Of a stretch of 64,000 bases of DNA, positions 59,988 to 62,416 are shown piece by piece. The first letter of the stretch is position 1; each line of letters begins with the position of its first letter. Source of the DNA: Escherichia coli (GTDB taxonomy: Bacteria > Pseudomonadota > Gammaproteobacteria > Enterobacterales > Enterobacteriaceae); NCBI RefSeq assembly GCF_050920415.1, contig NZ_CP169309.1, one strand, 5' to 3'. A program made the position numbers and the translations under genes. The notes beneath the pieces were generated by a model. The model was not told the DNA's origin. It saw only the letters and a program-made list of their open reading frames with translations, and ran no database searches.

Positions 59988-60001
59988 CACAACCTCTCTA
60001 T

Positions 60002-60029
60002 AAAAAAGGTGCTACGGCACCTTTTTTAT
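60002..60029 (+). terminator. Rho-independent terminator of the cyo operon (AAGGTGC-TACG-GCACCTT then T-run)
   Basis: Perfect 7-bp stem, 4-nt loop, T-run, 15 bp after the cyoE stop. Confidence 0.8.
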
Positions 60030-60040
60030 TGTCTGAGAAC

Positions 60041-60067
60041 AGAGATACGGCTAATAACCGTATCTCT
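60041..60067. promoter_or_regulatory. Operator-like palindrome 1 (AGAGATACGG-CTAATAA-CCGTATCTCT) abutting the -35 of the toxin-antitoxin promoter
   Basis: Perfect 10-bp arms with a 7-bp spacer; shares the ATACGG/CCGTAT core with palindrome 2. Confidence 0.6.
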
Positions 60068-60095
60068 TGACAGAGTGAGTATATGAACATAAATT
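60067..60095 (+). promoter_or_regulatory. Putative sigma70 promoter of the toxin-antitoxin operon: -35 TTGACA (60067-60072), 17-bp spacer, -10 TAAATT (60090-60095)
   Basis: Consensus -35 hexamer and optimal spacing read directly; about 75 bp upstream of the antitoxin ATG. Confidence 0.6.
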
Positions 60096-60099
60096 AATC

Positions 60100-60118
60100 A
60101 TACGGTTGATAGCCGTAT
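60100..60118. promoter_or_regulatory. Operator-like palindrome 2 (ATACGG-TTGATAG-CCGTAT) just downstream of the -10, over the predicted transcription start
   Basis: 6-bp arms with a 7-bp spacer, same half-site as palindrome 1. Confidence 0.6.
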
Positions 60119-60171
60119 TATGCATGAGATCGACTCCCTACGATTTCATTCAGTTAATCAAAGAGGTCATA

Positions 60172-60483
60172 ATGCCTGGAAAAACAGTCGCTCTACCCGA
60201 TATCGATAAAACGCTGAAAAATGCGCGGGTTGAACTCAAAACCAGTCCCGACGCCAAAAACAAACTTCGTGAAGCTGCGCAAGCCGTTGGGGTAGATTTA
60301 AGCGCTTTTATTTTGAGCGCAGCTATGGAACGCGCCGAAAGTGTGCTTGATAACCAACGTCGCCGTGAGCTTTCGAATCAAAGCTGGGAACTGATGAACC
60401 AACTCATCGCTGAACCTGCTCAACCGACGCTCGCCCTCAAGGCGTTAATGAAAAGGAAAAACAGCGATGGTCGACAAGCATGA
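60172..60483 (+). CDS. DUF1778-family ribbon-helix-helix antitoxin (TacA/AtaR/ItaR/KacA-like), 103 aa
   Basis: AAGAGG ribosome-binding site 6 nt upstream of the ATG; sequence fits the family pattern (VELKTSPDAKNKLREAAQAVGVDLSAFILSAAMERAESVLDNQRRRELSNQSWELM); overlaps the toxin start by 17 nt. The track ORF at 60106 is an upstream extension. Confidence 0.8.
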   Translation: MPGKTVALPDIDKTLKNARVELKTSPDAKNKLREAAQAVGVDLSAFILSAAMERAESVLDNQRRRELSNQSWELMNQLIAEPAQPTLALKALMKRKNSDGRQA

Positions 60484-61009
60484 AGAGATTACTCTGCCCA
60501 TAGTCCTCTCCTGTAATTATCAGTCTGATATTACTTATCCTGGGCAAAAACAGTTTGATTGCGGTAACCCTGTTATCGATAAATTTGTACGCGCATCGCT
60601 AAAGAAAAGTGTGCGTAATAGCGACTGTGCTGCTAAAGCACTTATTGACAGACAAAGTGGTGAACTGATTGGCATCTGTACTTTTACGGCATATTCGCTG
60701 GAAAAACAACGCGTTTCTGGCGTCCTTCAGGGTTCACAACCTTCAGAGATTGGTGTTGTCAGATTAGTCATGTTAGGGGTAGCGCGGAAATATCAAAAGC
60801 GGGGCTTTGGTCAGGACCTACTATGTGATTTTTTTGAACATGTAAAAATAATTCACCGGGCATTACCAATTAAAGGGGTTTATCTTGATGCTGACCCTGC
60901 CGCCATTAACTTTTATACTCGTCTCGGCTTTGTTCAGCTTTCAGCGAGGCCCAATGTTTTCGGTGCTGTACCGATGTTTTTAGCGATTCAGCATATTCTC
61001 GCGGCTTAG
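60467..61009 (+). CDS. GNAT-family acetyltransferase toxin (TacT/AtaT/ItaT/KacT-like), 180 aa; predicted aminoacyl-tRNA acetyltransferase
   Basis: N-terminal FDCG motif typical of these toxins, acetyl-CoA motif A (QKRGFGQ), C-terminal YxxLGF; ATG overlaps the antitoxin 3' end. Confidence 0.8.
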   Translation: MVDKHEEITLPIVLSCNYQSDITYPGQKQFDCGNPVIDKFVRASLKKSVRNSDCAAKALIDRQSGELIGICTFTAYSLEKQRVSGVLQGSQPSEIGVVRLVMLGVARKYQKRGFGQDLLCDFFEHVKIIHRALPIKGVYLDADPAAINFYTRLGFVQLSARPNVFGAVPMFLAIQHILAA

Positions 61010-61253
61010 ATTTTTATCGCCTCCGGCCATGGCAAGTTTTGCCTCAGCCGGAGACTGAACAGCGTTACCACTTTTGTTCAATTGCCCCCGCTTTCATCAG
61101 GTCCACATCCTTGCCTTTAATGGTTGCCGTTGCGGCAACGATCGTGGTCCTTATAGCTGCACAAGATTTTCGTTCAAATTCCGGTTTATAAAGAATAAGC
61201 AACGAATTACTGGTAAATGAATCAAGCCGGTAATCTGTAAAGTTAATATCCAG

Positions 61254-62000
61254 TCAGTTTAAGCCGAAAGGTGCAAAGCCGACCGTTTGAATAGTTTCCT
61301 TACCTGACGGACTCTTGATGTTGTACGTAACACGAAGATTGGCCACTTCGCCTAATTTATTGGTTTTGGCAAAGAGGCTATCCATGCAGGAAAAACCTTT
61401 ATCTAAAAAATTATCCCGCATTCCAGAACGGGTAATCGTGATCACCGGTAACGTATCGTCAACCGTTTTTCTGTCAATCATATCTTTTCGACAGGCGGCC
61501 ATAAAGTCTTCCGGACCAGCATAAATGTGAACACCCTTATCAAGATATTCTTTCGCTTTACTACAATCCACCTCGACATACTGACCATTGGCGTACATCA
61601 TGCCCAACCTGGACCATGCTAAATTCACACCGCGTTGCGTAGCCTGATTAAATAACGCATACGCTTTGGCATAATCCACCCGCACCTGTTCACCTTCGTA
61701 GTAGATATCCCCCAGCGCTAACGGAGCTTCTTCATCACCTTGTTTAGCGGCTAACTCGAACCATTTAATGGCTTCCGGAACGTTGGGTTTGGTATCGTAG
61801 CGGGGCTGATAATATTCCCAGCCTAACAGGCTTTGCGCGTCGACATCCCCCGACTCAGCCATTTTATGCAGTGTCCTTATCACATCGGGGGCAGGCTTTT
61901 CACTGTATATGCTGTCATACAATTCATGCGCTTTCTCGCTTGCCAGTGAACCTTGTGAGGCAATTAATAAAATAGCCAATAAACTCTTTTTATTTAACAT
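61254..62000 (-). CDS. Secreted Sel1-repeat (TPR-like) protein with an unassigned C-terminal domain of about 85 aa (248 aa)
   Basis: N-terminal signal peptide (MLNKKSLLAILLIASQGSLA|SE), about three Sel1-like repeats (e.g. LGDIYYEGEQVRVDYAKAYALFNQATQRG, LGMMYANGQYVEVDCSKAKEYLDKG); the C-terminal 85 aa has no motif I recognise. Confidence 0.75.
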   Translation of the reverse strand: MLNKKSLLAILLIASQGSLASEKAHELYDSIYSEKPAPDVIRTLHKMAESGDVDAQSLLGWEYYQPRYDTKPNVPEAIKWFELAAKQGDEEAPLALGDIYYEGEQVRVDYAKAYALFNQATQRGVNLAWSRLGMMYANGQYVEVDCSKAKEYLDKGVHIYAGPEDFMAACRKDMIDRKTVDDTLPVITITRSGMRDNFLDKGFSCMDSLFAKTNKLGEVANLRVTYNIKSPSGKETIQTVGFAPFGLN

Positions 62001-62416
62001 AAATAACCTTTATGCATCCATCACTGTATTTTTCAATATACCTAACCACCAAACATCCACTTCATGAATAAATACACAGCCATAACAACCTCAGGTAATA
62101 AGCAAACATTTAAGCTGAAGCAGAATAACCAGCACCGCCAACACCTCTATTTATTGCGATAAAATAACACCATCCTTTAATAAAAAATCACACGCTCATC
62201 AACAAATCCGAAAATAATATCATTCGTGGCAGGATAAAATCAGGCGAGCTTTTCATTTGTTATATTTAACGCGCAAAGTATTAATGGCAAGAATACGAGA
62301 GAAGCGCATGCCTGACGTAAAAATCACGCTCTTATGTAATATTTACTCATTAACACTCTGTTTACCCAACATGCGCTCCGCACTACACTATGTGGGCAAT
62401 TTTTTAAGAGGTGGTA

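Follow-up and report, generated by a model that had tools for sequence, protein, structure and literature searches.

The gene considered here lies in a stretch of 64,000 nucleotides of Escherichia coli DNA (contig NZ_CP169309.1; the whole stretch is hereafter called the window), in which an open reading frame (ORF) of 248 codons had been taken, from the sequence alone, for the complete gene of a secreted Sel1-repeat protein with an unrecognised C-terminal domain. Our analysis indicates that this ORF is very likely a nonsense allele, specific to one lineage, of a conserved accessory gene, and amounts to a pseudogene. In its intact form the gene encodes a 311-aa protein in which a probable Sec-type signal peptide is followed by a short Sel1 solenoid and by a predicted beta-sandwich of the fibronectin type III (FNIII)/immunoglobulin-like (Ig-like) kind that resembles the E. 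coli protein IrmA.

A premature stop in the Sel1-repeat gene

The ORF is present as predicted and runs on the minus strand from an ATG at 62000 to a TGA at 61254-61256, with a translation of 248 aa. It is not a complete gene, but the product of a nonsense truncation. The TGA occupies a codon that is CGA or CGG (Arg249) in the intact alleles, which encode 311 aa in strains A30, 2017-02-2CC, 2013C-4282, R32_14_1F and BLR(DE3). Both the window and one further locus (L001) read AAC TGA CTG at this point, where the closest intact alleles (L003, L004 and L005) read AAC CGA CTG. Translation of 61065-62000 gives 248 residues, one stop and then 62 open codons up to the original stop codon. With a premature in-frame stop and recognisable coding sequence downstream of it, the gene is a nonsense-allele pseudogene.

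Of the 936 nt, just 7-8 separate the window from the nearest intact alleles, those of 2017-02-2CC and 2013C-4282, and C745T is one of these differences. Beyond codon 249 the translation of the window is the same as that of the intact allele L004 and there is no further damage, so the stop mutation appears to be recent. The mutation is shared with other genomes: a 61-nt probe centred on the stop had exact matches in 10 of the 18 complete genomes making up the allele class of the window. In E. coli MFDS1022581, which is 100% identical over the region, the Prokaryotic Genome Annotation Pipeline (PGAP) records a 936-nt pseudogene, "tetratricopeptide repeat protein, internal stop", and an internal stop was flagged in all three genomes that were checked (food and dog isolates from Korea and a human isolate from Japan).

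Domain content and predicted fold of the intact protein

The original prediction of a signal peptide and about three Sel1 repeats was borne out. The N-terminus, MLNKKSLLAILLIASQGSLA followed by SEKAHE, has lysines at positions 4 and 5, a hydrophobic core of 10 residues (SLLAILLIAS; mean Kyte-Doolittle value 2.6) and an S-L-A motif ahead of the conserved mature start, with no lipobox cysteine; charge, core and motif make it, on inspection, signal-peptide-like and of the Sec type. In the AlphaFold2 (AF2) model, residues 1-19 have a predicted local distance difference test score (pLDDT) below 50. Residues 1-20 also diverge fast between alleles (nonsynonymous divergence, dN, 0.39), and the mature start SEKAHELYDSIY is conserved.

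Pfam Sel1 (PF08238) matched at aa 54-89 (E = 1.5e-6), 95-124 (E = 8.7e-4) and 131-155 (E = 1.6e-3), and the best phmmer match against solved Sel1 proteins had E = 1e-44. In the AF2 model of the full-length protein this part forms an alpha/alpha solenoid of paired antiparallel helices that extends to residue 178, which would correspond to three canonical repeats plus capping helices. All or nearly all members of the family share four cysteines (Cys146, 170, 205 and 280), which would fit an oxidised protein that is periplasmic or released. The PADLOC library of defence systems returned only a spurious 16-bit PtuA match in the Sel1 region. Some family members carry functional names in UniProt: 'putative zinc-dependent hydrolase' for certain E. 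coli proteins (AFDB A0A0H3MM38, A0A376ZPS8 and A0A376P1S9) and 'EsiB' for an Achromobacter protein. Since neither sequence nor model supports a hydrolase, such names look like propagated misannotations.

The 85-aa C-terminal region of the truncated product comprises a linker helix and then only about the first half of a beta-domain some 130 aa long; as the frame is cut by the stop, this region is not a complete domain. That it resembled nothing recognisable held for sequence searches. A Pfam scan of aa 156-311 gave no match even at E <= 10, PF18673 (IrmA) included. Four family members searched against NCBIfam at E <= 10 likewise matched nothing, and no NCBIfam model matches IrmA either. A profile of the domain run against PDB sequences returned only noise (4kh8 at E = 0.21, and hemocyanins) and did not retrieve the IrmA entry 5ek5. 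Structure prediction supplied what these searches did not. From an alignment of 20 sequences the full-length protein was modelled with a pLDDT of 84.6 and a predicted template modelling score (pTM) of 0.82, and the C-terminal domain modelled alone (pLDDT 81.3) agreed with the full-length model. The model has eight strands (187-191, 205-213, 219-229, 235-242, 263-270, 284-294, 297-300 and 307-310) arranged as an FNIII/Ig-like beta-sandwich, and the outstanding structural match of this predicted domain was E. coli IrmA. The domain can therefore be assigned at the level of predicted fold, with IrmA as the closest known structure. Because PF18673 does not match, the assignment goes no further than fold, and the original prediction of an unrecognised C-terminal domain is contradicted only in part.

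We also looked for traces of common ancestry between this domain and IrmA. Alignment of the two families with hhalign gave a score of 20.1 (P 0.015; database-calibrated probability 2.9%), a score reached by 3 of 200 column shuffles, and hmmsearch comparisons in both directions gave per-comparison P values of 2e-4 to 0.1. The hhalign alignment pairs Cys205 and Cys280 with Cys46 and Cys105 of the IrmA precursor (Cys21 and Cys80 of the mature protein), and pairs LRVTxxIK with LTITLQLK, PFG with AFG and ATATIxGKxVDL with ATEESNGHRVSL. Motifs common to the domain and IrmA can be written L-x-[VI]-T-L-x-[LI]-K, [AP]-F-G and A-T-x-x-x-N-G-x-x-V-x-L. These correspondences are suggestive of distant homology beyond convergence of fold, without proving it, and a Cys205-Cys280 disulfide like that between Cys21 and Cys80 of IrmA may be supposed. 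IrmA itself has an FNIII-like sandwich with an unusual internal Cys21-Cys80 disulfide, and forms a dimer by swapping of C-terminal strands (PMC4807369).

A profile of the domain found only 34 matches among 1.84 billion representative proteins, and in all the full-length matches (263-598 aa) it lies C-terminal to Sel1 repeats; the named sources are Escherichia, Pseudocitrobacter, Affinibrenneria, Providencia and Achromobacter. The same search gave a weak match to the domain core in a metagenomic protein of 5899 aa (P0069; E = 5e-6, spread over 7 stretches), whose repeats have the look of Calx-beta repeats; the match is therefore probably a generic resemblance between beta-sandwich repeats.

IrmA (C1275/C3665 of uropathogenic E. 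coli CFT073; PDB 5EK5; PF18673) is, like the protein predicted here, a Sec-exported enterobacterial accessory protein with an FNIII-like sandwich, and its intradomain cysteine pair aligns with an invariant pair in our family. It differs in that identity is only 19-20%, and in being a stand-alone domain of 126 residues encoded after agn43-yeeR in pathogenicity islands, whereas in our family it forms the C-terminal part of a Sel1 protein, encoded near cyoE. The present domain also has an extra insertion of about 14 residues and, in the model, eight strands. The strand-swapped dimer of IrmA and its binding of interleukins IL-2, IL-4 and IL-10 could be extended to the Sel1 protein by analogy only. 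In the CFT073 island that carries agn43-yeeR-irmA, a separate 378-aa 'SEL1-like repeat protein' is encoded about 10 kb upstream of irmA (L007:24724-25860); Sel1 and IrmA-type genes thus also occur as separate genes in one island.

EsiB (c5321; PDB 4BWR), the Sel1-repeat protective antigen of extraintestinal pathogenic E. coli, is a chain of 467 residues with Sel1 repeats throughout and no beta-sandwich, whereas the protein here has only three canonical repeats; EsiB is said, in work by Pastorello and colleagues from 2013, to bind secretory immunoglobulin A (sIgA). HcpB and HcpC of Helicobacter (PDB 1KLX and 1OUV) have one disulfide per repeat and no C-terminal beta-domain, in contrast to the one such cysteine pair found here. 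The Sel1 immunity proteins of type VI secretion systems (T6SS), namely PA5086-PA5088 and Klebsiella Sel1E, have no reported beta-sandwich domain, and our family differs from them in having no effector or T6SS gene nearby in any context examined and no specific sequence relationship to them. ApaG/DUF525 (PDB 1XVS, 2F1E and 5HDW) is cytoplasmic, shows 7-14% identity with no shared cysteines, and resembles the domain at the level of fold only.

On these grounds the intact protein would have no enzymatic activity and would serve for binding or as an adaptor, either in the periplasm or envelope or after release from the cell. The groove of the Sel1 solenoid would bind a protein or peptide, and the sandwich may serve as a second binding module or as a dimerisation module, because IrmA is a strand-swapped dimer. 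In the AF2 model the TGA falls between strands 4 and 5 of the sandwich, and the C-to-T change at codon 249 would accordingly remove the last four of eight strands together with Cys280. The product would be left with half a sandwich and an unpaired cysteine, which makes folding in the periplasm unlikely; most likely it would misfold and be degraded. Function would then be lost for at least the C-terminal module and probably for the whole protein.

The islet, its neighbours and the distribution of the gene

The gene lies in an accessory islet together with itaR and itaT (Table 1). Homology of MG1655 to the window ends at 60027 and restarts at 62338, leaving a cyoE-yajR spacer of 148 bp in that strain, in agreement with the earlier statement that the gene is absent from K-12. 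The G+C content is 0.35-0.49 within the islet, compared with 0.52-0.56 in the flanks.

Table 1. Coordinates of the features discussed in the text, in window numbering
Feature	Position	Strand	Remarks
Accessory islet of 2.3 kb (itaR, itaT, Sel1 gene)	60028..62337		between cyoE and yajR; absent from K-12
itaR (60172-60483) and itaT (60467-61009)	60172..61009	plus	type II toxin-antitoxin pair in the islet
Inverted repeat	61021..61053		15-nt arms with 80% complementarity around a loop of 3 nt; flanked by the itaT stop and by the Sel1 gene's original stop
In-frame remnant, codons 250-311 and original stop (61065-61067)	61065..61253	minus	last four predicted beta-strands and Cys280
Predicted IrmA-like FNIII-type beta-sandwich, aa 184-311 of the intact protein	61068..61451	minus	interrupted by the stop
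Premature stop TGA	61254..61256	minus	C-to-T at gene nt 745, CGA (Arg249) to TGA; next base C
Truncated ORF, 248 codons and TGA	61254..62000	minus	5' 80% of the 311-codon Sel1-repeat gene
Three Sel1 repeats, aa 54-155	61536..61841	minus	Pfam
Putative signal-peptide coding region, aa 1-20	61941..62000	minus	by inspection; predicted cleavage after S-L-A

The window toxin matched PDB 7BYY, which is the structure of ItaT (PMC7367177), with E = 1.3e-115. The ItaRT pair that has been characterised comes from E. coli HS, and BL21(DE3) was noted to have it as well; ItaT is a GNAT toxin that acetylates Ile-tRNA and acts on cytoplasmic aminoacyl-tRNA (PMC6125619). The inverted repeat between the two convergent transcription units could form a hairpin just beyond the original stop codon of the Sel1 gene and not beyond the new TGA, in keeping with the original stop as the natural end of the gene; it is plausible from its position and pairing that it acts as a bidirectional terminator shared by itaT and the Sel1 gene.

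Whether the gene always occurs together with its toxin-antitoxin neighbours, a question raised by the original prediction, can be answered almost in the affirmative for E. coli: in 1366 of 1369 genomes ItaRT directly adjoins the Sel1 gene, as a consequence of linkage within the one islet. The association breaks down in strain R32_14_1F, in which a 325-aa secreted protein replaces ItaRT next to the Sel1 gene, and in several other genera. In Pseudocitrobacter the gene is likewise beside ItaRT. At the cyoE/yajR site of other Enterobacteriaceae (L013, L016 and L008) there are one or two longer paralogues, which are 481-497 aa long, share the C-terminal domain and carry additional Sel1 repeats at the N-terminus; beside some of them stands hok/gef in place of ItaRT, or no toxin-antitoxin pair; L013 has 481-aa and 497-aa genes in tandem and L008 has 484-aa and 308-aa genes. 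The 311-aa form of E. coli looks like a shortened version of these longer paralogues, and the site attracts different addiction modules. In Affinibrenneria, Providencia and Achromobacter the Sel1 gene is found at unrelated loci. The link between ItaRT and the Sel1 gene is genetic and not functional, because the genes converge on the hairpin and the Sel1 protein is, by prediction, exported while ItaT is cytoplasmic.

No enzymatic partner, secretion system or T6SS effector was conserved near the gene in the contexts examined. The neighbour of about 325 aa occurs twice, downstream of the Sel1 gene in R32_14_1F (L005:3548-4525) and between the Sel1 paralogues in Pseudocitrobacter (L008:4998-5978). 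The two copies are 65% identical, have a cysteine-rich middle and have no Pfam match on record; this protein may be a functional partner of the Sel1 protein. A promoter scan upstream of the gene on the minus strand gave no sigma-70 consensus, with counts not above the shuffled background. Searching the islet with Rfam gave only STnc50, a Salmonella small RNA, at 59996-60063 on the minus strand (23.5 bits, well under the gathering score of 55, with E = 0.65). This sub-threshold match sits just downstream of the cyoE stop, spans the islet boundary at 60027 and is probably due to chance.

Among 5426 complete E. coli genomes 1369 have the gene, nearly always as a single chromosomal copy, and about 75% are without it. 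Two allele classes can be distinguished. The common class, with about 87% DNA identity to the window, comprises about 1350 genomes and includes BLR(DE3), C43(DE3), BL21 and O104:H4, O111 and O121 strains; the class of the window is limited to the 18 complete genomes mentioned above. Over the whole gene, synonymous divergence (dS) between the classes is 0.35-0.40 and dN/dS is about 0.2. This ratio points to purifying selection on the gene, and the classes appear to be much older than typical divergence of the E. coli core genome. The protein of the window class is nearer to that of E. albertii (89%) than to that of the common E. coli class (84%). The ItaRT region is more similar between the classes than the adjoining Sel1 gene is, and dS falls to about 0.15 in the last 62 codons, a drop which suggests a recombination breakpoint inside the gene.

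Full-length homologues with 57-99% identity were found in Escherichia species, Pseudocitrobacter and a metagenome-assembled genome of the Enterobacteriaceae. A Foldseek search of AFDB50 extended the named sources of the family to Salmonella enterica, Pectobacterium, Morganella, Proteus and E. fergusonii. Databases also contain shorter forms, from Shigella sonnei, S. flexneri and E. coli, of which one or more carry the label partial. These suggest that the gene is dispensable and decays repeatedly, although some short forms may be fragments at contig ends.

Weighing the alternative readings

Several observations weigh against our interpretation of the ORF as a nonsense allele of a gene for an exported Sel1 and IrmA-like protein. 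Literature searches on the locus, on its locus tags and on Sel1 in combination with IrmA returned nothing relevant, and no family member with a demonstrated function. The cleavage site of the signal peptide was assigned by eye and is a prediction. As PF18673 does not match and the hhalign probability is low, homology to IrmA is suggestive only. Finally, given the undamaged remnant and the apparently recent mutation, the 248-aa product may keep a residual role, or the UGA codon may be read through at a low level.

This last point can be developed into an alternative in which the product still functions, either as an exported Sel1 solenoid alone or because readthrough of UGA-C yields enough full-length protein to be of use. 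Both the signal peptide and the three Sel1 repeats are encoded upstream of the stop, the 62 codons downstream are undamaged, and the presence of the TGA allele in 10 complete genomes, which come from two or more countries and from dogs, humans and food, indicates that it is not strongly counter-selected. Poole, Brown and Tate are said to have found in 1995 that UGA followed by C is the weakest termination context in E. coli, which would favour readthrough. We nevertheless consider this alternative unlikely, as the stop splits a single compact sandwich, taking away half of its eight strands and one cysteine of the invariant pair, and half-sandwich fragments are normally unstable in the periplasm. 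Clonal persistence is equally expected for the neutral loss of a gene that about three-quarters of E. coli do without, and the shorter versions in Shigella and E. coli, even if some are partial or perhaps contig-end fragments, point the same way. Reading of the TGA as selenocysteine, or any other recoding, was rejected because every intact allele has arginine at codon 249. That the TGA is a sequencing or assembly error in a gene that is intact in the organism is scarcely credible: the difference from intact alleles is one base, but the same base was found in 10 independently assembled complete genomes, which rules out such an error as its source, PGAP flags the stop in every genome checked, and the site is not in a homopolymer.

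Other alternatives concern the role of the intact family. It might consist of orphan periplasmic T6SS immunity proteins, like PA5086-PA5088 of Pseudomonas and Sel1E of Klebsiella, with the window copy a decayed immunity gene. The protein is Sel1-built and, as predicted, periplasmic and non-enzymatic, the gene is patchy in its presence and often lost, the tandem paralogues at the same site in other Enterobacteriaceae (L013 and L008) resemble immunity-gene arrays, and a Klebsiella T6SS paper (PMC7108748) deals extensively with Sel1 proteins. Against this, inspection within 6 kb of the gene in E. coli and in seven further contexts (Pseudocitrobacter, Affinibrenneria, Providencia, Achromobacter and metagenomic contigs) showed neither a T6SS gene nor an effector gene, a result that orphan immunity genes would escape; in structure PA5086 matched less well than many other Sel1 proteins, and it was absent among sequence matches at E <= 1. 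We know of no Sel1 immunity protein that features an IrmA-like domain, and regard this reading as quite unlikely. The suggestion that the Sel1 gene is a functional third component of the ItaRT module draws on its place beside ItaRT in 1366 of the 1369 E. coli genomes having either, and also in Pseudocitrobacter. It is very improbable and largely refuted. The genes are convergent with a hairpin between them and so form separate transcription units; the Sel1 protein is predicted to be exported, while ItaT acts on cytoplasmic aminoacyl-tRNA, and ItaRT cloned alone works as a two-gene module (PMC6125619). Moreover, the Sel1 gene has a different neighbour in R32_14_1F, and its homologues in other genera have hok/gef as a neighbour, have no toxin-antitoxin pair next to them or occupy other loci.

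A bolder extension of the nonsense-allele interpretation would see in the intact family a new class of enterobacterial proteins, in the envelope or released, in which an EsiB-like Sel1 solenoid is fused to a divergent, IrmA-like domain that mimics a cytokine receptor. The targets of such a protein would be host immune molecules (sIgA or interleukins), and its carriers commensal and B1-type or Shiga toxin-producing E. coli, Salmonella and their relatives; the lineage of the window would recently have lost this activity. A host-directed role of this kind is suggested by analogy with EsiB and IrmA, an analogy of resemblance only, and we hold it to be decidedly unlikely.

Here we have reinterpreted a Sel1-repeat ORF of E. 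coli as the remnant of a longer accessory gene, and the gene in the window should be annotated as a 936-nt pseudogene and not as a 248-aa protein. Nothing in our analysis points to a new mechanism or answers an open question. We provide a first structural handle on an uncharacterised accessory family that about one in four complete E. coli genomes carries and that also occurs in Salmonella, in Pectobacterium and in other Enterobacterales. The predicted IrmA-like sandwich is recognised by no current sequence library, and its combination with a Sel1 solenoid has, as far as our literature searches show, not been described; a new domain family linked to PF18673 would be justified. Finally, this architecture suggests binding and dimerisation as concrete questions for the family.

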